A stretch of DNA of 64,000 nucleotides, taken from assembly GCA_973895155.1 (NCBI GenBank), contig OZ316896.1, positions 13,372,549-13,436,548 of the forward strand. Reading direction: 5' to 3'. The notes under the pieces were generated by a model. The model saw only the letters and a program-made list of their open reading frames with translations. It made no database searches and was not told the origin of the DNA. The position numbers and the translations under genes are program-made. This document shows positions 10,311 through 48,100 of this stretch, piece after piece. Position 1 is the stretch's first letter, and every line of letters starts with the position of its first letter. The DNA is from Marsupella aquatica (Eukaryota; Plantae; Marchantiophyta).

Positions 10311-12124
10311 CCAAGCCACCAATTCTCCGATTCAAACCTTACATCCCGCCTCCGTCCTCCGTTTGTGCTTTTCGATTTGAATGGAGGCGCCAATGCCAAT
10401 TCGAATGTTCGACCGACCCACCCCCACAAAGCCCCATCCATCTCTTTCAAATTCAAATTTCCGCTGAAAAAGTACTCCGTATAATGTACAGTACACTACA
10501 TTGCAGTGTAGGGCAGTGCAGTGCAGTGCAGTCAGGTATAGTACAGTACAGCACCCGTAGTTTCGACCATCCCCTTTGTCTTTTCCTTCTTTTTTCTTTT
10601 TTCTTTTCCGTTGGTTGATGAAATTTCTTTTGAGATTTCTTTTTGAGATTTCTGGGAGGAAACCATTGGTTGACTGAACTAAGTGAAAATAATGTAACTA
10701 ATGATCGGCAATGGGAAGGTACACTCGGGGAGCATGGGTCTAGAGTGAAGCCGCTAGAGGATGACTCGGGTGCTGGCACGCTGTGGGGTGAGGCAACAGG
10801 TGGAGAAGGCAGCCGGGGATCCAAGGAAAGCTCTATGCTCAAACATTTAGGGTAGTAGTAGTGGTGGTGGGATCCCAAAACTTGCTAGTAGTGTCTTTGA
10901 GGGTTGGGTAGTTGGGGATAATACTACCATATTCCCAATTATATACAACAAAGTGGGGAATGGAAGAGTACAAAGTATACATAGCTCCGGGGAGGGGAGA
11001 GCAAAGGTCACAAACAATGGCAAATATTCATTGCCTTTAGTGACCAAGCGGGTTTTGGTCACAGACCTGATTATGATTTGAAACCGTGAAAACACTGAAA
11101 TGTGTTTGAATTATGGTTTTGGACGAGGAAGTAGTATTTATGATTGATATGGTCAAAGGGTGGACCACTACAGAAATTAGTGTCCAATCTACAGTAGCAA
11201 GGTAATATACATATTTATGATCGAGTGGCACACTACTATTGACCGAATGAAGTGAGGTCCACTTGGGATCTACAGATCATTCTCCAATTTGTATGTGGGG
11301 TAGGGTAGCTGTGGTAAGGTATTTTGGGAGGTAAAAGATATGGAGGCGGAATAGGGAGCTCGATGTTGACAGAAGAGGTACTTAGATTGTTCAATCATGA
11401 ATGTGACCAAAGTAACCTTCTTTTGGCACAGGCCATGTGGGATATCATTGTCGACCTACAATAGCAAGGTAGTGTGCATATATATACCGTAGAAGAATGG
11501 ACACACGTACTGCAGGAAATTAATGTCAACCTATGGTAGCAAGGAGGCTAACAACAACCAAGATTTCACAAAATGATTATAATTCTTTGAATGTCTCTAT
11601 GCATTTTGCAAGAGGGTTATATTTCTACAACACAGAGCAAACACCAGTTGTACGTCCAATCAGCTCTCTCGAGGCAATCAGACGCACCATAAACTCATGA
11701 CAAGATTGAATCAACTAATCCAACCACCATTGTAGCTGTGCAGACTGGCTACATCAAAATTGATCTTTAATGTTATTAATTGTGTGTATAAAAAAATTCA
11801 GATATGGTGCTTGAGTGATTCCAAATAAGCTTGGGTACATGGCAAACCATGATTGCCTCTGAGTGCATGTGATATATGACATATTTTGTGGTATTTGTTA
11901 GATCTTCTAGCATTTTGGTTACACTGTAAGTCTTGGGGTTATATGTCACTCTTTTATCCTCATTCATTTGGCAGATTAGAGATGTACATCTCAGTCTTCC
12001 ATCCTGACTGGTTGATGAAAGGTTTTAGTGTCACTCTTCCATATATTGGCTAACCATGAGAGGTAGATTACTTTACCATTCTAGTTAGTTTGGGAGAAAG
12101 GGTGGAACCAAGTGACAAGGGCTA

Positions 12125-13010
12125 ACATTATGCCTGATCTCAAATGGTATTTATCAGACCTAAGCTTGTACTCGCCCCTGGCTTGTGAGTCTTACATCCA
12201 AACATTATGCTTTTATAATCCCAAATGCTATGTAGTGTGATCTATTTAAACATTATGCACTAGTGATCACACATATTTATATATATAGTGAGATCTAAGC
12301 TTGCAGGGCCTTGTTAGTCTCTTATCCAAACAATATGCTATGTAGTGAGATCTAAGCTTGTAGCGTCTTGTTAGTCTCCCATCCAAACAATATGCCCAGG
12401 TTATCACATATGCTATGTAGTGAGATCTAAGCTTGTAGCATCTTGTTAGTCTCCCATCCAAACAATATGCCCTGGTTATCACATATGCTATGTAGTGAGA
12501 TCTAAGCTTGTAGCACCTTGTTAGTCTCTCATCCAAACAATATGCCCTGGTGATCACATATGCTATAAAGTAGTGAGAAATAAGCTTGTAGCGCCTTGTT
12601 AGTCTCTCATCCAAACAATATGCTCCCTAGTTATCACATATGCTATGTAGTGAAATCTAAGCTTGTAGCGTCTTGTTAGTATCTCATCCAAACAATATGC
12701 TCTAGTTATCGCATATGCTATGTATTGAGATCTAAGCTTGTAGGGCCTTGTTGGTCTCTCATCCAAACAATATGCCCTAGTTATCACATATGCTATGTAG
12801 TGAGATCTAAGCTTGTAGTGCCTTGTTAGTCTCTCATCCAACCAATTTGCCCTAGTTATCACAAATGCTATGTAGTGTGATCTAAGTGTGTAGTGCCTTG
12901 TTAGTCTTCCATCCAAACAATATGCCCTAGTTATCACATATGCTATGTCATGAGATCTAAGCTTGTAGCCCCTTGTTAGTCTCCCATCCAAATATCATGC
13001 CTAAGTATCA
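12125..13010. repeat. 75-bp tandem minisatellite, about 11 copies
   Basis: Unit tgttagtctctcatccaaacaatatgccctagttatcacatatgctatgtagtgagatctaagcttgtagcgcct (starts e.g. 12369, 12444). The minus-strand ORFs show the matching 25-aa periodicity. Confidence 0.95.
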
Positions 13011-13124
13011 CATATATGCCACATATCACCATAGCGCCCCTTGCTTCCTTGCTTCCTTCAATCACTTGATATTTGATCACGTATGTGTCCTTGTTGACAG
13101 ACACACATAGAAGGAAGGAACCAG

Positions 13125-18922: not shown

Positions 18923-19839
18923 CGTTACTTTTCCCGATCGCAATTCGGTAACACTACTCAGAATGAATGACGCAAACTGCACACAATGCTCGAGAGAAAG
19001 CACGCGGTCCGACTGCCACACAGATTTAAGAGTTCCCGAGGCTGATCAAAGTGAATCAATTCGTCACAGTCGACCCTAAATCCACAATTTCGTCCTTCTT
19101 CCGCCGCTGAAAGCCGTCTTCAGACTTGATCATCAAGTTCAAAGCGGATCAAACGAGATTTCAGACCCACGCTAGGGCAGAATTGGATTGAATTAAATCC
19201 GAGTGGCAAACACGAATGAAACGTGAACAGTGACCAAAGCAGAAGCAAACGGCCAGAATGATCAAGGATTGCAAGAATTTGAGTGAGAGAGATCCCGAAG
19301 GAATGAAAGGACCAAACACAATTCGAATGACAACCAAATTCCGAGGGAAGGCAATCCACAAGGAATAAAAGATAGAGACGGCCGGCAGATGGAGGAATCG
19401 ACTATACAGAACATAACAAAAACAGACGGAATTGGCGCAGCAAATCTCGCTACAGAAGACATGCAATGTAGTCTTCTTTGTAATCTACCGTCTAACAACG
19501 AATCAATCATGCACAGCATCCCTCGGTTTGTCCTTGGTAGGTGAGAGTTCTGTTAGTGCAAAGCCCTTCTGCCTCCATGGATACCTCCGAGGTGGGTCCT
19601 GTGCTCCAGCTCTGAACAACTTTCTCTTTTCCTTTTTTCGCTTTTCAGTATCTACAGCTCCTGTTTTCTGGCTTGGCTTATTAGAATCGAGAGGACATCG
19701 ATCATTCGTAGAACACAATTTCTACCTGTTTGCCATATCCAATTCCCTCCTTTGCTTCGCAAAATTTCTCGGCTTCACCAACGACTCGTCTTCCGCCATA
19801 CTTTTAGCTTCCCTGGAAACTCTTCCACTCTCACACGTT

Positions 19840-20620
19840 TCGTGTCATTTGGGTCCATTCAAACAGACTTTGTGTCATTTTGTCTGGTGAGATGTTGAAT
19901 CAGGTTTTAGTGTCATTTGGCTCCACTTTAACATGTTTCATGTCATTTGGCTCCATTTACAGACACTTTGTGTCATTTGACTTGTAAGATGTTCAAATAG
20001 GCTTAGTGTCATTTGGCTTCACTCTCACACATTTAGTGTGGTTTAGCTTCACTCTGAGTAACACATTTAGTGTCATTTGACTCCATTGCATGCACTTTGT
20101 GTGATTTGGCTGCTAGGATGCTGAAATAGGCTTAGTGTCATTTGGGTTCACCAACACATGTAGTGTCATTTGGCTCCATTTGCATGCACTTTGTGTCATT
20201 TGGCTGAGAAGATGTTGAAACAGGTTTAGTGTCATTTGGCTAGCTTGAACACTCTAATAAATGTTGTGTCATTTGGATCCATTTACATTCAGTTTGTGTC
20301 AATTGGCTGGTAAGATGTTGAAATAGGTTTAGTGTGATTTGGCTGGTATGATGTTGAAACATGTTTAGTGTTATTTGGCTCCATTCTCAGACACTTTGTG
20401 TGATTTGGCTGGTAAGATGTTGACACGTGTTTAGTCTCATTTGACTGGTACTCTGTTGAAACGCATTGAGTGTCACTTGGCTCCACTTGGACACCTTTTG
20501 TGTTATTTGGCTGGTAAGATATTGAATCAAGTTGAGTGTCATTTGGCTTCATTCTTGGCTTCATTCTTACTGATCACACTTTGTGTCGTTGGACGCGTAA
20601 GATGTTGAGACAATCATCTC
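19840..20620. repeat. Composite satellite built on a GTGTCATTTGGCT core with two alternating subunit types (about 27 and 33 bp)
   Basis: More than 20 core copies, followed either by ggtaagatgttgaaacaggtttag or by ccattt.cagacacttt. Confidence 0.9.
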
Positions 20621-20749
20621 ACGAACCTTTGTGTTTCGGGCATGGTGAGATTTTAACATATGTTCTTGTCATTCCCTTGTCATTCGGCTCCCCTTGCACA
20701 CCGTTCTAATCTCTGTTACATGGAAGAACAACAGGGGCTCGAAAGCTGG

Positions 20750-21979
20750 AAAAAGAAGAATATTGTATTGATCAGATAAACAAAAGAGTGACGTTAATGA
20801 TGGCAAAGCTCACCACATGGGCCTCCGCAAGGGTCATCAAGCTGATTCCAAAAAATCAGGATATGGTTGACCTCATCAACTAGAGACTGCTAACAATGCT
20901 CACAACTGAGAAATTGATTGCTAAATTGTTGGCAAATAGGGTGAAGAAGGTGGCTTCTAAGCTCGTTGATCCACAATAGACTGGATTTCTTGAAGGTAGA
21001 GATATCTTGGACAACTTGATGACTTTTAAGCTGGCCCAAGAGTACACACAGCTAACAAAACAACCTCTGCTCTTCCTCAAACTGGACTTCACCAAAGCAT
21101 ACTACATGGTTGCTCACTCTTTCTTGTGGGCTGTTTTGAGGGCAATGAATTTTGGGGAGAACATGAGTACTCTGATAAAAGGGATGGAACAGACCCAGTC
21201 CAAAGTTCACATTAACCATAGTTTCATGGAAAGCAATTGATTTGCAAAGAGGAGTGAGACAAGGTTGCCCCCTCCCTCACTCCTATGCACTCCTATGCAC
21301 TCTTACTACTCAACCTCTGATGGAGTTGTTGAGAACCAAACTTGAGCTAGGGGAACTCCAAGGAATGAAGATCACAGATGACAACCGACTGTGCCAACAG
21401 CAATACAAGAAAGTTTCTGTAGCCCTGCAGGAGAATGTGCAAAAATCAAAGATAATTCCGTTGCACTTGAAGGACGGGATTTACCCTAGTTGGCTTCAAA
21501 CCACTGGTTGCAAGGTTTCTCAGGAGGGGGAGGTTACTGAATATTTGGGATCATGCCCAATTGGATATAAAGTCAAGCCCTCACATGAGGCTTCCTTTCT
21601 CATTGAGAAGTTGAGGAAACAACTGTTTCATTGGACAAACAGGAGCCTGACTATGATTGGCAGGTTTATTTTACTTAAACATGTCCTGCCAGCCATCCCT
21701 ACCTACCACTTAATGACACTTGAGCTGTATCAACCCGACGACAATTTTTGTGGGGGCCCTCAAGAACTACTGGATGCAGAAAGCCCTTATTGCCTGGAAG
21801 GAGTATGTCAACGCCAAAGGAGACAGAGGTCTGGAAATTCAGCCATTTGAGGAGTAAGCCCAAGCACTGAAGATGCGGCACATTGCTAAACTCATGCAAG
21901 GCGCAAACAGAAAGTGAATTAAGATCACTTACAACATCATTACGAGGGGAATAAATTCTGGACCTAGGAAGAGAGAAAG
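20750..21979 (+). mobile_element. Degenerate L1/Tx1-type LINE ORF2 (reverse transcriptase), 5' part
   Basis: VIKLIPK...IAKLLANRVKKV..KLVDPQ*TGFLEGRDILDN...LFLKLDFTKAY...RGVRQGCPL...EYLG..PIG...GRFILLKHVLPAIPTY, with stops and frameshifts. Confidence 0.9.
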
Positions 21980-22575
21980 ATATATGTCAAAGAGTCGACA
22001 CCCATTCAAGGCCAAGTCAATACTTCACATTGACAAATCATATACACAGTCAAGGCAGCACAGGTCAGGACAAGGAGATAACAACACATGGATGTGCACA
22101 TGCACCAAGTCATTTGTAGATAGTGAGATTAAAAAAATAATAAATCATGATCATTGTGAGGAAGAAACAGGTCCACAAATTGTTGAGGTCAATAATTAAA
22201 CTGTACATATATCCCAACATGCGTAAAAGATCAGGGTGGTAGTATGCGCATAAGAATAGTATGTTAGTCTATAGCTATGACTTCTTTGCTTTTTAAGATA
22301 TGCAAGAGATAGTACTAGGGGAGGCAACGGCGGGAAGGAATGAGGTCATAAGTTTTGTTAGGGCAGCTGCCAGGGTGGTGGTTACGTTAGTAAAACCTAG
22401 CTAATTCATGGAAGAAGTGAGTTACATATTTTTTAACAAAGTATCTGTAGTATAAGCTAAGGTATTAGTATAGGGCAAGTTTTGTATTTTACTGGTTGTA
22501 TGTAGGATTTTTACCATTTATAATTATTTTTATTTTTATTTAATAGTGTAGGTCATATGCCACCATTTATCTAGT
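21980..22575 (+). mobile_element. (GA)n-bounded non-coding element, unit A (probable internal deletion derivative of C-type)
   Basis: The first ~290 bp are closely similar to 23969-24260. It ends TGCCACCATTTATCTAGT-GAGAGAG, like unit C (TGCCACCATTTATCCAC-AGAG). Confidence 0.7.
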
Positions 22576-22582
22576 GAGAGAG

Positions 22583-23948
22583 TTCTATAAATATATCAAT
22601 ACGGAGATCACATCCTGATAAACTCAGGTCCCATTGTTACTCACCGCTATAGCTCATAGAATCATAAACATAATATAATATAACATCACAGATACTAATA
22701 CTTATATGCATATTTACCTACGTAAATTAACTTACATATACACATACTCATACCTTATCACCCAGGGCCTTAGGGGATCATGTATTGGATGACCCATAAG
22801 TTGTTGATGAACACGTTCCATTCATTTTCATTCACTGGTTTTCCTTAGAGCATCGATGAGTCCATTTTTCTAGGCTATAATTGGGCAACCATATAATGTC
22901 CATAACAAATCATCAATCCAGAAATATATTCTTGATATACATACAACCATTCCTTTATAAACACATTAGTGGTGATCCCATAGCGCTAGTTGTACATCAA
23001 ACTATTCGCTGGGTAAACTATTTATCCCGGATGGCTATACGATAGTATGCTCATGTGCCTAGTCTCAGGGCACTGAGTATAGACCATAGTTTTTCCTCAG
23101 GGATTATTAGACCTAGATAATCCACATCCCTAGTGCCGTTGTTCAGCCCCCGCCACTAGGTTGAAAATGATTTATATTTAAATCTTTTCAGGTACCATGT
23201 TTCTGTAACTTGTCCGGACTGTCACGGGGAGACATGGCCCAAGGAAAAACGAGTCCCTGGTCCCTACCCAGTCTATGTGAATCAAATATATTTGGATACA
23301 TTCATAGTTACAATATTAAAGAAATTAGATGGAATAGATTTTGCTATTGTTGTGCACCTTTAGACTATTGGTGGCCATTGTGATCTTCAGTCAGCGGACC
23401 CACGAGCTGGGTCTAGAGCAGTGTATAGTGATTCCTTGTCTGGCTTGGAGTAGTGTACAGTGATTCCTTTTGGCAAACCCCACACACTATCAATCAGAGC
23501 ATTACTGTTGGTGCAGACTTCTCATAACACCATTGCTCTTACGGGAGTCGGCATAGCATATAGCATCATAAAAGCTTCACACAACATCTTTCATGGAAAT
23601 GAGCAGAGGATCGGTTATCTAAAAGCTTCCCACGGTGTTCTCACTGACATTCATTCTGCATTAGCATTTTCCTGGTCATGTGTGGTGACTCGTTTAGAAA
23701 CAGGGGTTTTGGTGGACATCGCAGTGGCGGACAACTTTGGTGCCACTTATTGGGGAATATTTTTAGGGCATGGGCCCCAGCCCATTGTGTATGGTAAAGT
23801 ATTTCACTAGTATTTATACCCAGTATACTTATGATCATACGTATAATTATGACCATTACATGGTGGCCAGTGTGACCGTGATAATATCCCAGTAGTAAGG
23901 TCAATGGGTAGTTTTGTATTCTATCCATGTACTTCATATTTTTCTTAC
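22583..23948 (+). mobile_element. (GA)n-bounded non-coding element, unit B
   Basis: Lies between GAGAGAG (22576-22582) and (GA)10 (23949-23968). Carries the conserved structured cassette at 23047-23237. Confidence 0.6.
23047..23237 (+). ncRNA. Putative structured RNA cassette, copy B (family unknown)
   Basis: Four hairpins plus the conserved linkers AGACCAT, TTCAGCCCCCG, TTTCT and GGGGAG, shared with copies C and D. Confidence 0.5.
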
Positions 23949-23968
23949 GAGAGAGAGAGAGAGAGAGA

Positions 23969-24944
23969 TATGTCAAAGAGTCGACACCCATTCAAGGCCA
24001 AGTCAATACTTCACATTGACAAATCAAAAACACAGTCAGGGCAGCATAAGTCATGACAGGGATGTAACAACACATGGATGTACACAAGTACCAAGTCCAT
24101 TGAAAATAAAGAGATTCGAAACAATATTAAATCAAGATCATTGTGAGAAAAAAACAGGTTAATGAGTAATTGAGATTAGTAATTGAACTGTACATATATC
24201 ACAGCCTGCTTAAAAGATCAAGGAGGTAGGATGCACACAAGACTAATATGTTATTCTACAGTACTCCTAGTCATAGTTGGAGCACAGTAGATCATGTAAT
24301 ACATCCGGTAGAATGTGATGGATATAGTAAACTGTATAAAATCTAACGCAAAGTCAGAGGAATATATAACATAAGGTCAATTAGCAGGAATCAAAAAGAG
24401 TATCAGAAAGTAGTCAGTACAATATTATATATAAGGCAATGGTTATGATTGAATATAAAAAAACCAGTGGCTATATATTGTAACAGGACAGATCTGTTAG
24501 ACTAGGTACCATTATCAAATGGCATGGGATACAAATAAGCGATAAATCATACCATAATAAGTTAAAATCAGGTCAGGTGTGAAATATTAGAGTGATAGCA
24601 ATCTCTTATATGTGTGAGAAAATCCAGAGTCACATCTCAAGTGCCACTAGATCAAGAGGACCCTTGATATTGAAGGGGGTTATTTTCTAAGCGGTGCCTC
24701 ATATAAGCTGGTCAAGCAAACAGAGGTAGACCATCAACTGAAAGTAAAGAGCAGTGGACACAGACTGCAATACATCCCTGAGGTCGTCATTCAGCCCCCG
24801 TCCCCAGGGTGAATCAAATTTTCAAAAAATTATTCTTGTTATACGTTTCTGCTACCATTGAACCACGGCGGTAATGGGGAGCGTATATGTTGATACATGA
24901 TATAGGTGTAGAGTAAGTCTGGTAGTCAAGTGCCACCATTTATC

Positions 24945-24947
<3 letters not shown>
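23969..24947 (+). mobile_element. (GA)n-bounded non-coding element, unit C
   Basis: Starts TATGTCAAAGAGTCGACACCCATTCAAGGCC and ends GTGCCACCATTTATCCAC before about (AG)30 (24948-25008). Cassette at 24695-24887. Confidence 0.7.
24695..24887 (+). ncRNA. Putative structured RNA cassette, copy C (family unknown)
   Basis: Stems TGCCTC/GAGGTA, GCAGT/ACTGC, GAAT..AATTTT/AAAATTATTC and TATACGTTTC/GGAGCGTATA; core GGTCGTCATTCAGCCCCCGTCC. Confidence 0.5.
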
Positions 24948-25008
<61 letters not shown>

Positions 25009-25010
<2 letters not shown>

Positions 25011-26395
25011 ATAAAGACAGACACCCAATCAAGGCCATTGTCAAGATACCACTGTGTTCATACAGCACACATGATCAAGTCATATAGTAGGGTCTAGGGG
25101 TAGTCTTTTCATATGTCATTCACCAAGTCAATCTTGCACGGAAATCTGCACACTGTCAATGGCACATGGTGGAGCCAAAACAAGAGCAAGCATGATACAG
25201 TATTTTATTGGACAACTTAGGCCTGAAAAGGCATGACATTAGTGCAGGTTATAACCAGGACAGGAAAAAATGACTATAGGGAACATAAAAAGCGAGGAGA
25301 GTAAACAACTCCTAGATTCTCATGCATATAAAGATTAGAGAAACCAATGGTAGGATTCGACCCAGGTGAGGATACACAATGAATTAAGCTTAGAAGAATA
25401 TGATACTATTTATTGCTAAGGAATACAGGGTATGATAGGATTAGCTCAGCCGCTGCATCAACATCACACTCATCCACATTAGCATAGTTAGTCCTTAGTT
25501 AATAAAAAAAGTTATTTTACAGCAAGCATTCTGTTCATGATAAAACAGTATGTTAGACTAGCGATGTTTCATATTGGTATGTCATCCAAATAGAAGTGGA
25601 CCATCAACCATAGCTGAAATATAGCAGACATAAGAGCTATATTGCTACCCACATGGTCGTCATTCAACCCCCGTCCATGGGGCAAGACTAGTCAACAAAT
25701 GCGAGAACAAGTGTACTAGTTTATGCAACACATTTCTATTACCATTTGCCCAGGCGGTAACGGGGAGACTTGTCTCAGTTGGGGGCTAGCCTAAAAACAT
25801 TTGGAGCAATATATAAGTGGTATAAAGAAAGTTTAGAAGAAAATTACCTACTGTGCTTGTTCCATGTGAGTCACGGGAATGTTGTTGAAGCAGCCAGAGT
25901 CTTGTTCAAAACAAGTGTGTTAAACAACAACCACCAGATGTACAGGACAACATGCTAGGGAGCATGAGTGTGCATAAAGGACCAAGAACAGTAAACCTTG
26001 CATGTAGATGCTTTGCAGGGTCAGGACTAGAAACTACAAGATGGAAGAGAATGTTTGTGGAAGGAAGATCCAGAGTAGAAGATTTTGTTTTATAATGTTG
26101 AGGTGATGTGAGATGCCTCATAAGAAGCTGCCGTAGCCAGAAGTACTGTTTTAGGTTATTGTTTATGAAAGTGTATGGGAATGCTAATGACTGTCAGATC
26201 TAGGTTAAAGAAAAAGGGTGGTGGATGGAAGTATTTTTATATTAGGGTATACGTGGAGTCTGTGAATACTAACATAGACATTTGATGTATACATGGTCAA
26301 TCATTATACATGGTACTTTCCAGTGTGAATATTTTAACATTTTACTGGAAGTTTTCAGATGTCTAGAAAATAGTTGTTGCGGATATATCTCCTAT

Positions 26396-26397
<2 letters not shown>
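25009..26397 (+). mobile_element. (GA)n-bounded non-coding element, unit D
   Basis: Starts ...GACACCCAATCAAGGCC (related to the A/C left end) and ends CTCCTATCC before about (AG)18 (26398-26434). Cassette at 25565-25770. Confidence 0.65.
25565..25770 (+). ncRNA. Putative structured RNA cassette, copy D (family unknown)
   Basis: Stems TATTGG/CCAAATA, AATATAGC/GCTATATT, GACTAGT/ACTAGTT and TTACC/GGTAA; core GGTCGTCATTCAACCCCCGTCC. Confidence 0.5.
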
Positions 26398-26434
<37 letters not shown>

Positions 26435-26436
<2 letters not shown>

Positions 26437-28015
26437 CATGGACAGGCAACAAAGCACTGTCTACTCCTAAGTGCCATGACATCACACTCAAAGGATCAGC
26501 TACTCTGAAAGGATTAGTCAAAGGTTGATACCAAAAATGCAAGCAACTGAAGTTGAACTTTGGGGAAGGCAAGCTCCCATGCAAGCTGTCCATTGAGCAG
26601 ACCATTCAACTGTACCTATGCAATAATAGTTTGTCCAATCCGGGAAATGCAAACCTATGGAGATTCATGGCCAATCAAAGGGTCAAGAAACTCTTGGATC
26701 GAAGGACAGAGCAAGGTGGGTGGATTTTGAAGAGGTCATCAACCAAACCACCAGGGTTGGGAGTGCGGATTTCTCCCAGTTCTACAACAAATTGAAATAG
26801 ACCACAGACCTCATAGAGTGCAGCCTGCACGAGTGTGAGGGCTGGCAATGGGGGGGGAGAAAGAGAGGCTGGAACTTCCCCAACAAGGTCTGGGTCAACT
26901 TCAACAAAAGTGTGTTGATTGATGTCACTAAGCTTAATAGAAGGTGGGGACAAATCAGCCAACAACAAGAGTGGCAACAAAACTGGCAGAAACTGTGCGG
27001 CAGATGGATTTTTCCTAAGGTGCACTTTTTCATTTGGCATCTATTGAAATATAGTTTTTTCACAAATGGGAGGGCTAGCCATTGAGAAGAGGAATTCTCC
27101 AGGGGCAAATTACAATTTGAGCACACTGAACACTTTTTATTCAGCTGCAACACTGTCATTTCTAGATGGCAAGAGATTCACAGACTTGTTCGATACTCTA
27201 CGGCTCTGCAGTCACTCAAGGAAGACTTTATGAAGCACTAAATGATGCTATCCCCGTGAGCAAGAGGAAACCAGGTCCAATTTTCCTACTGATGGAACTA
27301 TGCTCTAGCATTTGGAAAGAGCAAAATGCGGCTTCTTACTCTCAATTCCTGGGGAGACTTCTGGGATGGGTGGTCTTGCGCCAACTTGACACACATCTCA
27401 AAGCCATGATGAGAATGTGTCATTCTGTGGAGACAAGCAAACAAATTAATAGGAAACTTAAGTCATTGACCAACTCCGTGTTGTCCTCAAACCCTGGGAG
27501 ACTACTGAAAGCCCTATTGCTACAAACACACTAGATGAAGATGACTGAAGCGACCAACACCAAGAAAGGAAGAACTTATATGGCCAAGGACAGGTTGACG
27601 AAGATGAAGACTGAGTGCACTAGGATGACGCATTGTACTAACATGCCATGGAGTGGTGGCTACCAACATCAAACTAGACCTAGCTGGGGGTTTTGGGACA
27701 TGGGCTGGGGCAATTGTACTAGTAGATCACACTTTTAAGATAGTCCCAACAGGCAGCAAAACATGAGGTGGAATAGGATTCAGGATAATGTGAAACAGAA
27801 TACGAGGCAGAATAGAAGGAAGATGAATTTAGATGTTTTCGGGGCCATTCTTCAATGATTGTTCTGGATTGTGCGGCATGATTAGTGTTTTGGTCCCGTG
27901 TGCCCTTTGGCCCCCTGGTCTAGTGCCCTCTGTGACCTTTGCTTGGGTGATTTTTGCCCCCTTGTGTGTTATTGAGGCTTTGCAGCCCCCTTTTTCAAAA
28001 CAAATAAAATAGCAA
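26435..28015 (+). mobile_element. Degenerate LINE, 3' part (post-RT region, zf-RVT-like segment, 3' UTR and A-rich tail)
   Basis: The reading frame resumes ...GPRKRE|SWTGNKAL...GKLPCKLSIEQ. Later EHTEHFLFSC..RW and IWKEQN resemble the L1 C-terminal region. A-rich end caaaacaaataaaatagcaaa at about 27995-28017. Confidence 0.7.
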
Positions 28016-28736: not shown

Positions 28737-28817
28737 CTTTCTCTCTCAAATCTTATCATCTCATATGCATTGATTGATAGATTGTGCATGTGAGATGATA
28801 ATATTTGAGAGAGAAAG
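28737..28817 (+). other. Near-perfect ~34-bp hairpin (pre-miRNA-like or palindromic relic)
   Basis: CTTTCTCTCTCAAATCTTATCATCTCATATGCAT pairs with GTGCATGTGAGATGATAATATTTGAGAGAGAAAG, with one mismatch and two G-U pairs on the + strand. Confidence 0.55.
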
Positions 28818-34800: not shown

Positions 34801-35599
34801 AAACTTCTAAGCAATTTTACGTAATTAGAAATGGTAGATTCCTTTCTAGCTATGTATCCAGATCTTACGAATACTCTTCTAAATTTCTTCTTTACTTGTA
34901 CAGAAGTCCAGAGGCCAGACACAAGTCTCGAAATATATCATCTACTCATTGACGGTTTATCACCATCGTTGTATATACTCTTCAGTCTACAAATGCAGCA
35001 TTAATTCGTAAACTAAATAATGTATGTATTCACTATCAGCTCCAATAACCCGCCTCACTCCTTCGATGGGACCGAACGTTCCACATTTTTCCTGTAGTAT
35101 TGACTGTGTCTTGTGAATGTCTCCGGACCAGTTAACTCGTTTAGTGGCTTCTAAATCCTTGCAATCGTATATAGTATTAGCGTTAGACGACCTTCTGATT
35201 TGCGCAACCCGCAGAGAGAGTCCTAACATCAGGTTGGGACATTAGATGGCAACCAAATGAATCCTGACTTCCAATTATGTGCAAATTTATAGGTGAGTGC
35301 TGCTTTGGTTTCCTCAGATTCGAGAAGAAATAGACTCAGGATTAAATGAATAAATTTGAGGTACTCGGCAAGTAGACCACTTGTGAGTAGAATTGAATGC
35401 CTTTCCGGAAAGCCTTGAGCAGAAAAAGCACGAGACAAACTGTCTAGAGAAAAGGTCTGGATTTATAATCTTGTAAGAGGTGCCCTATGAGCTGAACACG
35501 GGGCCGAGAAGCTGATTTCTAGTCTAATTGTGACAAAAATTTGTTGACAGATTGAATCGTGTGATCAACTACCTGTAAATAGTCTAGTAGACTCGGAAA

Positions 35600-38500
35600 A
35601 TGAATATGACCGGGAGGGCAAGAAATGAAGACCAATCTAGTATATCAATTAACGTCGACGCTGCAGTCGATCGTCCTCCAAAGCAGAAGATGAAACTGGA
35701 TGAGGACAGGTCTAAGAGTCCGACATCGAGCGACACTACAAAGCTAAGTTCGCCGCAGAGGTGGTCTCTGGGTATGGACAGGCCTGAAAGACTTTCGAGC
35801 GAGACTACGAGGCTGGAGACAGACAAGTCTGTGGGTTCTGGCATCCTGGATTTCTACCCGTCGTCCAGCATGAAAACGGTCAAGATTGGCGAATTCGAGG
35901 ACGAGACTGTAGCGTGTCACAGCCAGCTCCAGTTGGAGCAGTCATACGGACTAGACCCACTGGCGATTTTCAAAAAGGTGACCGAGGACGAAATTAAAAA
36001 GAGGGCGCCGGAGCAGAATATCACACTTTTCGCATTGAGACTGGCACTAATCGAGAAGTCGGCGAGCGGGATCGGTACGCTCTCTTTCATCTGGGCCAGC
36101 ACTATCCTTTTGGGTGGCTTTGCATCCAATCTGAACCCAGTGGATTTCATAGTGATCACGCTGATACTCGTCACGGAGGGAACCAGGATTTTCACCCGTA
36201 GCAGGGAGCTCGAATGGCAGCACCTGGCATCCAAATCCACGGAAAAATCACTCACTCACGAATCCGAGAGAAGCTTGAAGGTCCCCGAAAACTGTGGTGG
36301 TGGAGAATTTACGAAATTCGGAGGAGCCAGCTCAAAGCCCGAAGAGGAGCCCATTCCATCATCGGAACCACCAGGAATAAACTTAGAACGGGCTCCCAAA
36401 GCTTCGTACAAACACACCACGTTTGCAGTCTCAGATGAGGACCTCGAGAGCTGTCAGATTAGTAATGCAGGCTATAACATTCAGCACACCCCGCACCTGG
36501 TTCCAACAGGCAAGACTCCAGGTGAAAAGAAATCGACGAGCAATGACATTACAGACTTCGAACTCGAGAAGACGGTGCTCGGCACAGCCGATGCGAAGAA
36601 CATCAAACGAACGTGGAGCGGCAGATTAGTGCCCATATTGCCTGGCCGGTGCAGCTCTATCATCTCAACGAGGGGAGTCAGTGCCATCCTGTATTGGATC
36701 CAGATCACCTCAGCAGCAATATGTCTGGCTCTCTCAATCTGGAGACTGACGCAACAAGAATACAATCCGCCTGCAGTTCCCAAACAGGATACTCCAGTAA
36801 ATCTTTACACGTCGTTGAATATCTTCTACACCCTCGCGCTCACGGAAGCTCTTCTGTTCCTGCTGGAGCGAGTCTACTGGGAGTACAAGATGAATTACGA
36901 AAAGCTGGTGCTGCAAGTGAGCAAGAAAGCGGATTTGGGAGGAGGAAATCAGGAAATGATGAAGCAGTTCTTCTACGAGGTTTACAAGAAATGCATTGAT
37001 GGAAGCGTGTTCGACGGGCTATCTATGGACATTGTCGAGTACAGCTTGACGTTGCTCCAATCAGACAACTCGTTCGAACAGCTGAATGGCCTTAAAATGC
37101 TATGGAAGATCGTGGATCGATACGATGGCTTTTCTTTGGATGCGTTGAGACGGACGGGGACTGCACCCGGAGTGATCGAAAGGTTGGTGGAGATGTTGTC
37201 GTGGCGTGGAACCCTCGGTGGAACCGATCAGGACGAGATTCGCCTGGCAGTTGCGGCATTCATATGTCGGCTGGTGCGGTACAACAAGAACTGCTTTAGA
37301 GTCGCGGCAGTGCCCGGGGCCATGGAGGGGATTCTTTCTCTTCTCAGACCGCATGAGCAAGATCACATGATTCCTAGACTGGATATCCCGACAGATCTAC
37401 TCTCCTCAAAACGAGCAATGATCGCTCTTCGCTTAGATGGGTTGCGCATCCTCGTCGCTCTAGCAAGGGATCCGGTGAACTTGCTGAAGATTGGCGAGAC
37501 ACGGGGGCTCGTTCCCATCCTTGTGGCATTCATCGCAGTCAAAGACCTTCATGCATTCAGAGAAATGGGAGGCTCCGAACTGAAAACATTCAAAAAGGTC
37601 CTGCGACTACTAAAAATGTTGTCGGCGGCACGGAACGCGAGCGGGACTATACTCCGGCCCATGATTGTCAGGGTGGTATTTGCCATCGCCAGCATGAGGG
37701 ACATTCTCGAGTTTGGAGACTATCATCCACAACTTCAGTGGATGGCAATCGAGATCCTCAGTAACTTGACATTGGACGACAACATTAGGAGATCAATTGG
37801 GAGTACGGGTGGTGTCATCCGGAACTTATTCACGCTGTATGGCAGAAACCTGGACTTGTCAAAAACTCTTTTCCTCTCAGAAAAGGACAAGAGAGCAGAG
37901 AAGACAGTTTCGAAAAGAGCTGGGGATGCCCTTAACCTCCTGGCGACTATGTGCAGGAAGAATTGCTTGCGAATGATGGATCTCCAGGATGGAAACGGCA
38001 AAAAACTTTTCATTCCAACTCTATTGACAATGTTGAACGAGTACAGAGAGCACACCATCTGCGCTGCCAAAATCCTTCGAAGCCTAATGGAGTATGGCAA
38101 CTGTTCTCAGAAGCGAGCGATTGCAGTATGCGTTGTGAGAGTCGTGAGGCTTACCATGGGAAGCTCGAGCCCAAGAATGCAGGAGGCTGTACTCGGTCTT
38201 GCGTCCCGAGTGTTCACTATCCTCGAACAGCGAACCTACGACCAGGCTTTTGAGAACGTGGATCGGACTGAGCTCGTTCGGACTCTCCTCAAAAATCTGG
38301 AGTACAATCCCCTTGGATCCTACAGGTTGCCGAGGATTCGTCGTCACAGCATTGAGTCAATACTGGCTCTTGTCAATCGAGACCCCAGCTTCTTCGCAGA
38401 GTTCATGAGCGATGGCTTGCTGGAGAAAAAGCTAATGCAGATGTTGGACACCGTCTGTGAAGCCGAGGACTTCGTAATCTTCTCTGGAGCTGAGGGACTC

Positions 38501-38635
38501 AACAGACACTCCATCACGATGGAAGATCTCGTCCAACAATCTATCCACGAGGTCCGAATTCTTGATCGAGAACGAGAAGAGATTCCATCCAAACCCGTAG
38601 AACTTGGTATTAAACAAGTTCCTAAATTACATTAG
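35600..38635 (+). CDS. BLE2-like / ARM-repeat superfamily membrane protein, 1011 aa, single coding exon
   Basis: 3-kb open ORF. APEQNITLFALRLALIEKSASGIGTLSFIWASTILLGGFAS...EGTRIFTRSRELEWQH and LNIFYTLALTEALLFLLE are family motifs. TM segments are followed by helical ARM-like repeats (GVIERLVEMLSW, KIGETRGLVPILVAF, SIGSTGGVIRNL, PRIRRHSIE). Confidence 0.92.
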   Translation: MNMTGRARNEDQSSISINVDAAVDRPPKQKMKLDEDRSKSPTSSDTTKLSSPQRWSLGMDRPERLSSETTRLETDKSVGSGILDFYPSSSMKTVKIGEFEDETVACHSQLQLEQSYGLDPLAIFKKVTEDEIKKRAPEQNITLFALRLALIEKSASGIGTLSFIWASTILLGGFASNLNPVDFIVITLILVTEGTRIFTRSRELEWQHLASKSTEKSLTHESERSLKVPENCGGGEFTKFGGASSKPEEEPIPSSEPPGINLERAPKASYKHTTFAVSDEDLESCQISNAGYNIQHTPHLVPTGKTPGEKKSTSNDITDFELEKTVLGTADAKNIKRTWSGRLVPILPGRCSSIISTRGVSAILYWIQITSAAICLALSIWRLTQQEYNPPAVPKQDTPVNLYTSLNIFYTLALTEALLFLLERVYWEYKMNYEKLVLQVSKKADLGGGNQEMMKQFFYEVYKKCIDGSVFDGLSMDIVEYSLTLLQSDNSFEQLNGLKMLWKIVDRYDGFSLDALRRTGTAPGVIERLVEMLSWRGTLGGTDQDEIRLAVAAFICRLVRYNKNCFRVAAVPGAMEGILSLLRPHEQDHMIPRLDIPTDLLSSKRAMIALRLDGLRILVALARDPVNLLKIGETRGLVPILVAFIAVKDLHAFREMGGSELKTFKKVLRLLKMLSAARNASGTILRPMIVRVVFAIASMRDILEFGDYHPQLQWMAIEILSNLTLDDNIRRSIGSTGGVIRNLFTLYGRNLDLSKTLFLSEKDKRAEKTVSKRAGDALNLLATMCRKNCLRMMDLQDGNGKKLFIPTLLTMLNEYREHTICAAKILRSLMEYGNCSQKRAIAVCVVRVVRLTMGSSSPRMQEAVLGLASRVFTILEQRTYDQAFENVDRTELVRTLLKNLEYNPLGSYRLPRIRRHSIESILALVNRDPSFFAEFMSDGLLEKKLMQMLDTVCEAEDFVIFSGAEGLNRHSITMEDLVQQSIHEVRILDREREEIPSKPVELGIKQVPKLH

Positions 38636-42202: not shown

Positions 42203-45150
42203 TTACCATGCTTCTACCCTCTCATTTGTTTGATCAATAGTGTTCACGAGCCTTCCACCTTTGGCCTTCCCTTTGCCTCGCTTCTTCGGAACTACTATAC
42301 AATATTCTTGATATTGTACTGGTGGAGTTTCTACGACAGGCTCACTCTCATGATGGCCATTTGGAATAGCTCCCGCGCAATCATTGTTGTGCCCGTCTGT
42401 ATCAGGTGCCTCTGGACCAGCAGAGGCAGGCCTTGAATCCAGTACAACATCTTCACGATCTCGTAGGGTCCTCAAGATTAAGGTTTTGAGGAAGTTCATA
42501 ACTTGCACCGCATGCATCAGTGCTGTAAGAGGATCGGCCATCTGCACGTCACCAACACTTACAATGTTAATTATGGATCACTGTCTATAAACGAAATATC
42601 TTCAATCGCACAGGTTATGGACCATATCACTGTCAATAAACGAAATTTCTTCAATCGTACAGGTTAAGGATATTCTAAAGACCCATTGACACCATGGCGA
42701 GCATACCTGAGTCATATTGGGAGCGAAAACCATGGCGATATTGCGGGCATTCATCTTATTGACCTGTTCCTCTTGAGCAACATCTGCCATCAAATTGACA
42801 GCCCAGTCCAAAAGGGCTGCCTGTGTAGGAGGGAGCAGTTTCACTAGCTCCACACATTGCTCCTCGGTGTGACATTGCATTACTTGCTCTGGTGAAAGAG
42901 AATCCAGCACTCCTCGTGGTAGCTCCCTGAACCAAGCCTGCCCAACCCACGAATCGTCCAGAACGTCATTTCATCTCTTTCGTGTTCAATATGCGAAGAG
43001 CCAAATGTTGACAAACAAAAATCCTACGCACTTAGGCAACTGCAGGGAGCAAGACCAAAAAGACAAGAGGCAAAGCGCATGGCCACAACGACCACCAATC
43101 CTATGTCAACACTGCTTCTCAAAAAGTTCCGTAATAGTGGTATCACGATGGTTCGAAGGGACTCCACGGCCCACGACGACTGGCTTGATCTGGCATGTCA
43201 TTATGCTCAGCAGATTGTGCAAAAAGTCACTTCAGGAGGACACCCGGTAAGCAATCACTACATCTCGTTGTAAAAAGGTTCTGCCACTTATCTGGACAAG
43301 ACACCCTGTCTGACACGTCTACAGGACCAACCCAAGCCCGGGACGACCGGCAACATGACATGATCTTCCTTAAACTATGAAAGAACAGTACGCCTCCGAC
43401 ACAACCAACATAATTGTGTCATGACGAGCACTGCGACAACTCGAACCTCCTATTAAACATAATACCCAACAGTACCCAACGGGCTCCTGTTGCTACCTAC
43501 CTCGCTGGAAACGCTGCAATCGAGGAAAATGAAAACGTCTCGACATCTACCAAGCAAGTACCAAAAGCTACAGACGACCTGCTATCCCAGCTTCTGGCCA
43601 TTAGCCGATTCCCTTTCTCAGCTTAAGTCGTAAGAAGATACATCAAGAACCCGTGCCAATCTCACGGAATAACGAGAAGACTGTCATCTTTTCGCTGTAG
43701 CACTTGGCCAAATTCCGACCGAGAGAAGACTGCTAAGGGCTAACATGGCTAATGAGAGACCTATCGACCACAGCATGCCCTCACGTACCTTGATGAGACC
43801 AGCAAGACAGTGAAGATCGATATCGTTCGGAACGATGCCTTTATTAAGCTGCTTCCTAGCGTGCTCTTCATGGATGCTTTCGGCGTTGATCCTAAAGATA
43901 CCTTCAACCTGCGGAATTCGAAGCACAGAAAAACAGAACGGTGTCAACAGAAGTGAGACAGTCATAATGCCGACACTCCCATGGCAAACTTAGCTCGCAC
44001 TCCTTAAAGGTGTCAACGAGATAATCACATCTTAACAGAGCCAACCTCGGCAAGTTCTGGCTTTCCGTTCCCCAAAATTCAAGAAAAGAAGGAAAACCCA
44101 CAACTCCCACAAGTAATCCAGTAGACACACATCGCGAGTAATCCTAATCAAAGGTTCCTAGCGGTCCAAGTTCCAGAGTGACTAGAGACAGACGAATGGA
44201 ATCCAATTGTGCCACAAACCTTCATGCCTCCTTGGATATAGAGTGCTTCTTGCATCAGAAGCAGAATGGTCGGAACGCTATTTCCCTTCGCATCGTAAGA
44301 ACATTGCATCGACTCCGCCGAAACACCAAACACGCTCGCACTGCGACAGAAAGAAAATAATTTAACTTCCCAAGCAGGGCAGGAGAATAGGGTGGCCCCC
44401 ATAATTCCAGCTTCGTCGATGAAAAACCCCTGCAGCAGAATTCTCTGAGCAGAGCTACGTCTCTCTAGCAACCTTCCGGGGGACCACAAACCAGACTACT
44501 TCGAATTCCAACGAGTAGATTGAATGGTTACTACGTATTCAGCTACAAACGCAAGAAGTGAAGGCATCAACTAACCTGGCGCTAGGAACCCTTCTAGGGA
44601 CTTCGACTTCAAACTCCACGGGCAAGCCGAGAAACCCATTGTAGCGGTCGAAGGTGACATGAGCAACATGCTGCACATTCGTCGGCCAGCCAATGTCCAT
44701 GTTGCATTCTTCGTCGGGGGCCCTGCACGTGAGCAGGGAGCGGCGAAAGGCAGCCAGCATGAGGGCCAGCATCGACAGCTGGCGTTGAGCCCTTTCGTGG
44801 TCGCTTTCTCTCCTTCGAGTGACCTCTCCGCCATTACCGCCCCCATGATGATTATGATGCCTGCTCACCACCATTTCACCTCCCCTTTCCATGATGTGCT
44901 CCTCATAATCTACAGTACTTAACCGGTTGCTCCCACCACTACGCACCTGATGGTGATGGTGGTGTTGGTGGTAGCGAGGCTGTTGTTGCTCTGATACACC
45001 CATGACCGTGTGAATGAGAGGAGATGATGGATTTCCAACGAAGTCGTCGGAGTCTGATTCGTCTGAAGTATACTGTCCATTGCAACTGTAGTCATCAGAA
45101 TCCGTGTTATCAGATGGGTACTGACGCCGAGAAGGAAGAGCTTCCGTCAT
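42203..45150 (-). CDS. ROPGAP: CRIB-domain Rho GTPase-activating protein (RopGAP), about 461 aa
   Basis: Exons 45150-44576, 44340-44220, 43908-43789, 42937-42707 and 42541-42203 (GT-AG, in phase, 1386 nt). CRIB motif MDIGWPTNVQHVAHVTFDRYNGFLGLP; GAP motifs EGIFRINAE, HCLAGLIKAWFRELP and NKMNARNIAMVFAPN; C-terminal ERVEAW. The start could lie further upstream (acceptor at 45252). Confidence 0.95.
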
Positions 45151-48100
45151 CTCTTTTTTCACTCTGAAACGGGGATGATCGTCGACTTCAATTCCTCTTC
45201 CTCCCAGTCCTTCTCTTGCAATGCCTTTCACCAGCAGAGGCCCTCGTTGTCCTGTCAAAGGAAGTAGTGCCGATTAATGAATGAAAACCTTTAGGATTAA
45301 TTCCTGGCTTTGACATGAATGTCAGCAGGCACGATCTGTTACAGTATCAGGGTAAGAAACCCTAAGAGCCTCGATCAAAACAACTAGTGGATGCTCGATC
45401 AAAACAACTAGTGGATGCTGTTGCTGTGAGGGTGACAGCACCAGCGCATCATGATCACTTTCTCCAAAACGTCGACGAGGCTCTGTTTGCGCGTGAATTG
45501 GTACAACCCAAAAGAGACAATGGATGGCAATCACAGTTCGACATCGTAGTAGGCTGAGAGTAACCCTGAAAGCGCGATCACAATTTTCCCAGTTCTAACA
45601 AGAACGACGCTGGACAGCACTGGAGCGTGGTGGATAAAGCGTCACCAAAAATGGGCGTGAGTGAAACAGAGGACAAACCTTCACGCCCAAGCGGAAAGTC
45701 CCCATTCCAAAACATCACATCCGCTCACCCCTTCACAAGACTAACATCACGTATGGGAGAGAAATTCGCGAAAAGAAACTGCCGAACCCTATGCATTACA
45801 GCCCCTCAAGTAGCCCATGCATCGGCCCAGCCCAAAGAGTAACACAATCTAACACCCTGTGAGCCTCAACCTCGTCAATTGACGAACCACTAAAGCCAAA
45901 TGGGCACGACAACTTTTAGTTGCTCGGTCGGACCTACGGCTTAAGCGATTGAGTCAGAAGTGATTTACAAAATAATCTCACCCCAGTGAACTTTCCAGAA
46001 CCGTGAACTAAATGTCATTTTCGTTTCGGAACGGTGTCGCTTATATGCCAACTAGAGGAGTAACGCTTAATGACTCTGTGGGACCCCACGAAATCACTAG
46101 CCTCACACGAGCATTCACTCTCGGCTCAGGATAGTTCGAACCAGTGAGCTGACGCCAAAATCGTCCTTAACAACCCCAGCTCGGTGGCGACAAATACAAG
46201 GGACCATGCTCAGGACTCTCGTCCGAGACGAGGAAATCATAAACAAAAAAGGGGAACTGATACGAAGCTCTCCCAAATGCTGCTAGCAGACTGAACCCAT
46301 AGTGACCCTCACCACCGCTCACGAAGAAATCTCCACAACGAGACCATGCAACTATACCCAAACACGCTACTAATAACGCATTAATCATTAACAGTACAAT
46401 AGACATCAATACCTCTGCCGTGGGAAGCATGTGCAAGTGCTCCTCCCAACCGTCAACAAGAATTCATGATTCCTGTTCGAAAGACTTTCTACATTATGAA
46501 ACCTGCTTGCAAGGAATAAGAAAAAAAATGGCGAAGGGGAGAGACCAAACCTGTGTTCGGCTTGGAAGGATTGGAACTCCGGTAATACATCGTGACGATG
46601 ATGAACAAGAAGGCGATGAAGAATGCCGAAATCACAGAGAAACAGAAACCCGCCGGATGAACAATGGCTTCTACGGAGGTATCGATGTCCAAGATATGAG
46701 GATGAGGAGCGACAGTGTTGGACGAGCCGTCGCGTCCAAAAAAAAGGCACGAGTCCGAGGATTGGAGGATACCTGGACAATACGAACACCGCCCTGCTCA
46801 GCCTATGAAAAGAAAAAGGAGATGAACAAGAACCGCGATAGAGGCCCCTGAGGTTGCTTCTGGCACAAGAACCGTCTACCTTGGACGCAGACCACCACGA
46901 TAAACAATCTCCACCTCCCTACACTCTAGAAATTGCTCCACCCGGAATATAGCAGCTACCCTCATCTAAACATCCACTAGCTCCTTCTGCTCTGCTCCAG
47001 CTGTTGCCCTATGGCAGACTTGTTTACAAAAAAGAATGGTTTGAGGTGTGAGACACCAAGTACAGAAAGACCTCCAGGTTCAAGACCCTCGACTCCAAGT
47101 TCATGTGGATGGAATGATAGCAAGTGGCCAAGAACGGCAAATTCCGAATTGGCATGAGAAAGCTGCTCGGTTTGACGAGCACTCGGACAGCGAGACCTCA
47201 ACGACCATAATATGGAAGCTATTTTGCTACAGTGGTGGGACACAGTCGCCGAGCGACTGCAGCGAGCAGTCGTTGTTACAATGATGGACTGACCTGCTCC
47301 GCCAACTTGAAAAAAATTCAAGAAGCCACGGTCAGAGTGAAAGCTTGCTTGCCAAAGCGACCAGCCGGTGACCGAATAACGCACGACCCACCAGCAAGAG
47401 AACTGCAGAACGAAGTTCAAAATGGATGATCCCAGATAGCTGGTAGGCTAGATGACTTGTCGAGGTAGCTCTACAAGTCAAAGGGATCCAGACTAAACGA
47501 GCAACGGGAACAGAGAAAGAAACGGAGACGGATGGTGAAGTACGAAGTCTGTTGACACTTTGAATCCTTTGAGACAAAGAACATTCCTCACTCTCCTCCC
47601 CTCCTCCTCACAAGCCAACTAGCAGTCACCTACGGGCAATCCTGCTGTCAAGACAAGACAGCCCCCGGGCATGCTGAGCATGGTTTTCTTGGCTGCCCAG
47701 CAGCACGCTGCCGAGCACCTTACCGAATAAACAAGAAAGGATGAGGAATTAAAGAACGCCAGAAGGGTGACTCTAGTCGACCCACAATCAGACAAAACGT
47801 ACTAAGTAGGACGTGATCCCATTCCTTTCCAGCACTCCAACCCCCCTTCACCTCACCCTCCTCAACAGCTCGATACACACTCGCTACGCAACAAGCTATG
47901 CTGCATCACTGGTCAAAAAGCTGTCAACGATTCTACGGACTCTGCCCACAAGCTTCTCTTCAAGCTGACCAAGTCCATGGGCCGCAAGCAAGAACCGCAT
48001 GAAGCAGCATCCGCGGAGCTCTAACATGCTCTACTCCTCCTTCCTCCTCATCATCATCACCCAGACCCACCCAATTAATCACTTCCTTCTCATCAATAAC

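Follow-up and report, generated by a model that had tools for sequence, protein, structure and literature searches.

GA-separated non-coding units in a liverwort LINE, three of them with a predicted permuted hammerhead ribozyme

In a stretch of 64,000 nucleotides from the liverwort Marsupella aquatica (assembly GCA_973895155.1, contig OZ316896.1, positions 13,372,549 to 13,436,548, forward strand; here called the window), a long interspersed nuclear element (LINE) is interrupted by a 4.4-kb block of four non-coding units, A to D, which are separated by GA repeats. These units are likely to be non-autonomous retroelements, moved into a GA tract by a Penelope-like element (PLE), and three of them carry a predicted hammerhead ribozyme with its conserved blocks in the unusual order S, G, C. 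To this reading as a whole we assign a probability of about 0.55. That the units are non-autonomous elements targeting GA seems very probable, while a partner of the Chlamys/PLE-X type of PLE is favoured somewhat above even odds. A conserved internal structure of B, C and D speaks for a retroelement whose reading strand is the minus strand; it was missed by an earlier first-pass annotation, which was made from the letters alone and proposed no mechanism.

As far as the available part of Eckert et al. 2023 (PMC10085705) goes, hammerheads of type SGC have been found only in environmental sequence (metatranscriptomes) and in no genome of a known organism. The SGC-ordered motif in B, C, D and a metagenome contig, L001, is new here. 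A literature search met the term non-circularly permuted hammerhead only in Eckert et al. 2023, and neither a permuted hammerhead in a plant genome nor a GA-targeting liverwort element was reported in the literature searched, a body outside which most subscription papers and Repbase lie. A multicopy, genomic SGC version from a land plant, its top junction unlike the published one, would add a new variant of the fold, and it would link a ribozyme to the targeting and growth of GA microsatellites in a liverwort.

Insertion site and arrangement of the block

The block and its host are arranged as follows:

20803..21980, plus strand: left part of open reading frame (ORF) 2 of the L1-type host LINE, from the reverse transcriptase (RT) to the post-RT region, decayed (tblastn of relatives P0002-P0017; junction test)
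21981..22575, minus strand: unit A, with C-type ends, a different middle and no ribozyme motif
22576..22582: GAGAGAG spacer
22583..23948, minus strand: unit B, a multicopy family with its own ends
23949..23968: (GA)10 spacer
23969..24947, minus strand: unit C
24948..25008: (AG)30.5 spacer
25009..26397, minus strand: unit D, sharing with C the left-end block and about 200 nt around the motif
26398..26434: (AG)18.5 tract and right junction (tract part up to the LINE restart, 26398..26432)
26433..27180 (right end approximate), plus strand: restart of the host LINE ORF2 (ESWTG...), decayed, toward the zf-RVT region

The four units and their GA spacers can be read directly from the sequence, with the coordinates that the first-pass annotation had given them. 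Its description of a LINE that resumes in register is also borne out, as the relative P0002 aligns up to 21980 (residue 431) and again from 26439 (residue 434). Riccia proteins make up 14 of the 16 relatives. The proposed target site duplication (TSD) of 8 bp, on the other hand, is not supported by comparison with homologues. These have seven residues between a conserved (S)GP and W. Joining 21980 directly to 26433 gives an empty site with seven residues, whereas excision of the duplication gives five, and the junction without duplication has a better score and fewer gaps in five of the seven homologues, with a tie in score for the other two. No TSD of 4-10 bp is seen at the insertion site. 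Because the direct junction fits better, unit A begins near 21981, and the original target would have been the short, imperfect GA-rich stretch in which the left LINE part ends, with the long tracts arising later. The only GA or TC runs longer than 8 nt in the window are the three long tracts, all within the block.

Four public contig sets from two studies (X1 to X4), one of which may be the source of the window itself, contain 0.59-0.94 of the words of 20700-23948. None of the runs listed as containing them is of RNA, which has no bearing on expression. Contigs without mismatch span the junction of LINE and unit A in X1 and X4, and that of A and B in X1. A 10-nt duplication in the RT region of the LINE (21275-21302) is missing from paralogous contigs.

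Ends, content and copies of the units

A block at the left end is common to A, C and D, with A and C alike at 83% over about 300 nt, and a 24-nt block at the right end is common to A and C. Each of these matches was equalled by none of 500 shuffles, in keeping with the shared ends noticed earlier. The ends of B are unlike those of the other three (p 0.18-0.76), and B joins them only through the internal motif. Of the single non-autonomous GA family proposed earlier, the non-autonomous, multicopy and GA-associated nature is supported, while its being one family is not.

Terminal inverted repeats (TIRs) are absent from all four units at 40 or 150 nt (p 0.19-1.0 in eight of eight tests), there is no poly(A) tail (the longest A run in the units is 7 nt), and none of the 18 six-frame readings of A-D has a Pfam match; on these points the first-pass annotation was right. 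For the long terminal repeats (LTRs) that it also held to be lacking, one of eight direct-repeat tests (B, 150 nt) reached p=0.03, and those at 40 nt gave p 0.20-0.75, where repeats of 4-6 bp could hide in GA. Common TG...CA ends were not found in the units, nor was similarity to the host LINE. No Pol III A box occurs in the units, and a B box matches once, inside D. No RT, GIY-YIG, recombinase or transposase was found in the 51 scanned ORFs among the 71 of at least 100 aa in the window. The predicted folds of the whole units are not rod-like, with 51-64% of bases paired, 10-26 hairpins and z from +1.1 to -2.5 (eight shuffles each).

Unit B occurs elsewhere. When contig depths are summed, X2 gives about 31 for the unique middle of this unit, 900-975 for its left end and 1100-1530 where the motif lies, and X4 follows the same pattern. 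Contig depth does not equal copy number, and this difference of about 30-100-fold between parts is taken only as a sign of tens of copies with a modular build. As the depth of B is so variable and paralogous B-type contigs carry other flanks, a fixed 4.4-kb block is refuted, which agrees with the earlier view that the units move separately. Homology within the B family breaks at 23255, where three different contigs (X1, X2, X4) diverge; this module boundary lies about 24 nt beyond the predicted cut.

Among the 24 loose contig ends listed of 59, six rows lie at the A/B junction, and in three of these a GA tract or GA-rich sequence precedes a B-type left end:

22576: X3
22576: X2, two contigs
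22591: X2, two contigs, mixed consensus

A further loose end in X3, with GA after an A-type right end (22582), was left out of the count of new loci because it may be unit C itself. The expectation that other copies would be flanked by GA thus holds for at least three B-type left ends and fails for one. GA stands before most of the other B-type left ends, and this small sample supports the GA bias. In one X3 contig, at 23942, the right end of B runs straight into a D-type left end with no visible GA; this could reflect a further tandem, a junction as in a circle, or an alignment that was forced.

The internal motif and its predicted fold

Pairwise alignment, followed by a pattern search, brought out a motif of about 110 nt that is common to B, C, D and L001. 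Within the window it lies as follows:

23128..23237, minus strand: motif of B (U16.1 23232, C17 23231, G12 23203, C3 23146; predicted cut 23231/23230)
24776..24887, minus strand: motif of C (C3 24794, C17 24881; U16.1 absent in this copy)
25649..25773, minus strand: motif of D (U16.1 25768, C17 25767, G12 25736; U instead of C at position 3, 25667)

Read as RNA, B, C and D have about 65-720 nt on the 5' side of the motif and 650-910 nt on its 3' side. A covariance model found no further copies in the window. Patterns for the motif and the left end gave no matches in the viral contigs and prokaryote genomes searched, and Rfam gave none in 21500-27000 at E up to 5. In contig L001 the motif occupies 571-684 on the minus strand; this contig has no GA tract in its 1156 nt, and its six frames have one weak Pfam match only (E 0.17).

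Read on the minus strand, the motif begins with one strand of stem III and GUC, followed by UCCCC, a hairpin, and GAAA with the stem III partner; then come a variable hairpin and GGGGG immediately before CUGA-AY-GA. The cleavage site, the GAAA block and the CUGA..GA block thus stand in the order S, G, C, and the last of these sits in the loop of an 8-bp bridging stem. Stems I and III are in exact hammerhead register and cross as this order requires, and the invariant unpaired letters are those of the hammerhead core, in register with both stems. Over the four sequences, 89.6% of the 96 cells of this model are paired and 10 of its 24 pairs are changed on both sides, which none of 500 shuffles equalled; slid controls have 38-51% of cells paired. 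The bridging stem, which joins the free sides of stems I and II, has 8 pairs, with 93.8% of cells paired and five pairs double-changed. A descriptor made up of nothing but core words and stem geometry, run over both strands of the window, matches only B and D there, and it also matches L001; unit C fails it because U16.1 is missing. In 200 shuffled inserts there was at least one match in three and two matches in none (mean 0.015 per insert).

The core deviates from the hammerhead consensus in having two bases between CUGA and GA, that is, one extra base after A6. Its other letters are all present in L001, the only complete core among the four aligned sequences. The window copy of B has A at G8, where the majority of the B family has G (23140 T>C, 1181/1510 depth in X2). 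Further majority letters swap a pair in the bridging stem (23132 A>G, 1441/1510 in X2, with 23157 T>C, 701/732) and another in the linker hairpin (23208 A>G with 23222 T>C), and 23153 C>T is the letter of the other three sequences. These letters come from the 40 rows listed of 82, in a table in which linkage of paired changes on the same contig is not visible, and they lend partly independent support to the fold.

No unpaired linker separates stem I (7 bp), the linker hairpin, the stem II positions and the bridging stem from one another in any of the four sequences, an arrangement that would form a zero-linker four-way junction. The nested three-way junction of hammerhead types I-III is not found, the block order of the motif being the reverse cycle. 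The choice of strand is based on core register and wobble pairs, not on energy. A permuted hammerhead of SGC order is the probable identity of the motif, and we put the odds slightly in favour of self-cleavage by an intact family version.

A second, weak SGC-ordered match near the left end of D (25065-25142, minus strand) is lost when the descriptor includes the bridging stem. The possibility of a chimera at the cut site is unsupported, as outer stem III is base-paired within each of the four sequences. Comparison by eye with consensus features led us to drop ribozymes of the hepatitis delta virus-like, twister, pistol, hatchet and hairpin types, as well as Fanzor omega-RNA, Helitron ends and solo LTRs.

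Comparison with known ribozymes and mobile elements

The closest relatives of the motif appear to be the published type SGC ribozymes (HRIMA-1 and variants), which have an invariant 5-bp stem I and a bridging stem (Eckert et al. 2023, PMC10085705). The motif agrees with them in the block order S-G-C, in stem I with its invariant 5 bp, in having a stem that links the two sides of the CUGA block and, roughly, in the spacer that sets this stem apart from stem III. It differs in its occurrence in genomic DNA of a land plant, in the two bases between CUGA and GA, in its weak stem II of about three pairs, and in having, instead of the published 3-nt linker from S to G, a hairpin that would form the four-way junction; its cleavage is predicted from sequence and fold. 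Each deviation from the hammerhead consensus has a published precedent. An insertion after A6 is known from a natural hammerhead of low activity, a one-pair stem II works with a pseudoknot between I and II, and a mismatch at 10.1/11.1 is tolerated (PMC3088659), while in the hammerhead of Chara PLE-X1 C and A flank stem II (PMC8557442).

Among mobile elements, the units most resemble the Chlamys and PLE-X groups of PLEs. In the green lineage these show a microsatellite bias and undetectable TSDs, Chlamys-5 of Chara prefers (CT)n and carries a hammerhead (Craig et al. 2021), non-autonomous Chlamys such as MRC1 form head-to-tail insertions with 3' ends in common, and related proteins occur in mosses (PMC8557442). 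Shared with the units are thus the placement in the green lineage, microsatellites as targets, in Chara (CT)n among them, the lack of a discernible TSD, head-to-tail non-autonomous copies with common 3' ends, and hammerheads in some families, one of them with C and A flanking stem II. Unlike those elements, the units have neither an ORF nor a pseudo-LTR (pLTR), they are separated by the target repeat, and their ribozyme is permuted and lies far from the RNA 3' end. No sequence link between the units and a PLE emerged: word searches, to which diverged matches are invisible, gave no convincing match in the published consensus set of PMC8557442. The same source describes lone hammerhead core halves in green-lineage PLEs that fit no descriptor. 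If the present fold is true, it would explain why descriptors and Rfam miss ribozymes in those elements. An algal consensus listed there just before Chlamys-1_cAtm has, by eye, CUGA-AC-GA and then GAAA near its 3' end, with the same two-base spacer between CUGA and GA.

Other systems share fewer traits. The Athena and Coprina PLEs, which lack an endonuclease, have complementary repeats beside their hammerheads, through which they attach to G-rich repeats (PMC8557442); they too combine repeat-complementary RNA with a hammerhead, but their target is the telomere and not an internal (GA)n. Hammerheads in PLEs and retrozymes are covered by PMC4209133, PMC6765202 and a 2026 preprint. Plant LTR and animal non-LTR retrozymes are likewise non-coding, hammerhead-bearing mobile units, and differ in that no LTRs are found here and the microsatellite recurs between units of different families. 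CryptonV and the pineapple Ac-mMITE (a miniature inverted-repeat transposable element, MITE) also target microsatellites, the latter with clustering by adjacent insertion, and Replitrons share the fixed orientation and the presence in liverworts. The units lack the TIRs or short terminal direct repeats of these three, for none of which a hammerhead is reported in the available parts of the sources.

Proposed mode of spread and rival explanations

The predicted hammerhead in three units makes these likely passengers of Penelope-like retroelements. Microsatellite bias, lack of a discernible TSD and head-to-tail copies, as known from PLEs, are all seen here, with few other loci to draw on. GA tracts border the units, and the strand on which the motif can be read is the TC strand, which we take to be the RNA. 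If so, the left end common to A, C and D is the 3' part of the RNA, adjoining (UC)n. A partner protein would nick or locate the (GA)n DNA strand, whose 3' end could anneal to the (UC)n of the RNA and prime reverse transcription. Such priming would fix the orientation, hide any TSD and add GA at each event, and because each insertion would lengthen the target, later copies of any family would land beside earlier ones. The ribozyme is predicted to cut read-through tandem transcripts after GUC. Since it is internal and no copies that stop at the cut were seen, insertion would need uncut RNA or ligated circles, and full-length copies with an intact internal ribozyme could come from uncut RNA or from circles primed at an internal (UC)n.

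It could even be imagined that the elements form a liverwort retroelement superfamily with an active permuted hammerhead, its stems I and II locked by the four-way junction, in which tandems, formed because the elements insert into one another's GA tails, yield cut and ligated RNA circles whose internal (UC)n primes on (GA)n. Propagation would in that case depend on self-targeting, and the long GA microsatellites of the host would be products of the elements. This wider scenario is speculative and we regard it as doubtful.

A number of observations speak against PLE-moved units with a permuted hammerhead. An autonomous partner protein was found neither in the scanned ORFs of the window nor on L001, the single metagenome contig matched by the motif pattern; L001 has, a short way 5' of the motif when read as RNA, a near-ORF (733-1134, minus strand, 134 codons, one stop) for which no relatives were found. 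In the window every copy of the motif has a core lesion (G8 in B, U16.1 in C, C3 in D), and unit A retains intact ends with no motif above noise under the covariance model. No pLTR or partial tandem was found within any of A-D, no copies ending at the predicted cut site were seen in the public contigs, and one B-type left end has a non-GA flank (one contig; X1 and X3 rows at 22591).

As to the fold, structure and descriptor are both post hoc, having been made after the four sequences were seen, and the covariation shuffle ignores kinship in a model drawn from four related sequences. Stem II consists of three opposed positions and is not canonical: one is C.A in all four sequences, one is G-C, G-C, G-U or A.C, and one is a purine pair alternating between G.A and A.G. 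A Watson-Crick stem II (2-6 bp plus G-C) and a linker of at most 8 nt between S and G are both absent, the linker being a hairpin, and the motif would be missed by the search pattern published for SGC, which asks for CUGAUGA(U)G, CGAAA and such a short linker. Position 10.1 (23138) is altered in a minority of B copies. A nested hairpin fold on the plus strand is also good (paired in 84% of 100 cells, with double changes at 9 of 25 pairs), and free-energy folding favours neither strand.

This plus-strand fold would suit TIR-less DNA transposons at GA, akin to the tyrosine recombinase elements of CryptonV or to the HUH-type Replitrons, in which the structure binds protein or forms in single-stranded DNA and resembles a hammerhead by chance. 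Both unit ends are precise, and A keeps its ends without the motif, as would be expected where ends are recognised; moreover, some CryptonV families insert in microsatellites (PMC8869645), and Replitrons are present in liverworts with a fixed insertion orientation (PMC10288648). Such an origin seems rather unlikely, as there are no terminal direct repeats besides GA and a DNA element would have no evident use for invariant unpaired letters that reproduce the hammerhead core in stem register. The same ribozyme and GA targeting might instead be served by a non-LTR LINE of an L1/Tx1- or RTE-like microsatellite clade, with the units as passengers resembling short interspersed nuclear elements. Lineages of this kind are known (PMC8869645), L1-type LINEs are present and multicopy in the host, and no pLTR is seen. 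We consider this unlikely, too, since poly(A) tails and, at either unit end, Pol III boxes are lacking, the units bear no similarity to the host LINE, and published hammerheads, so far as the sources at hand extend, are tied to PLEs and retrozymes.

Presumed circular RNAs, assembled as metatranscriptome contigs, are the source of the published SGC ribozymes (PMC10085705), and with sizes of 0.6-1.4 kb the units fall within the viroid-like range, so genomic copies of viroid-like circles, captured by a host RT at GA tracts, deserve mention. They are very improbable: the units are not rod-like, a second ribozyme on the opposite strand was not found in the window, and high copy number with common termini fits ongoing genomic spread. 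Even less credence is due to a TIR-less derivative of a Mutator-type microsatellite MITE, or to solo LTRs clustering in GA. Pineapple mMITEs do cluster by adjacent insertion in a dinucleotide repeat, but they favour (TA)n and have TIRs (PMC8449440), which the first-pass annotation had already held against such a class. The missing TIRs, common TG...CA ends and 4-10 bp TSD largely exclude this option.

Other features of the window

Degenerate tandem arrays of about 102/36 nt and of 75/57 nt lie at 19824-20555, a short way left of the LINE fragment, and at 12124-13015, respectively. At 28737-28817 there is a near-palindrome of 81 nt with one TC-rich and one GA-rich arm. Further to the right, an intronless gene on the plus strand (35591-38635) encodes a 1014-aa ARM-repeat protein (BLE2-like) with 82-83% identity to Calypogeia fissa over residues 330-800 and 60-63% to Marchantia and Riccia. 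Together with the Riccia relatives of the LINE, these identities make a leafy liverwort the most likely host. On the minus strand, exons with RhoGAP and PBD domains (42605-45273) belong to a probable ROP GTPase-activating protein (ROP GAP) gene.

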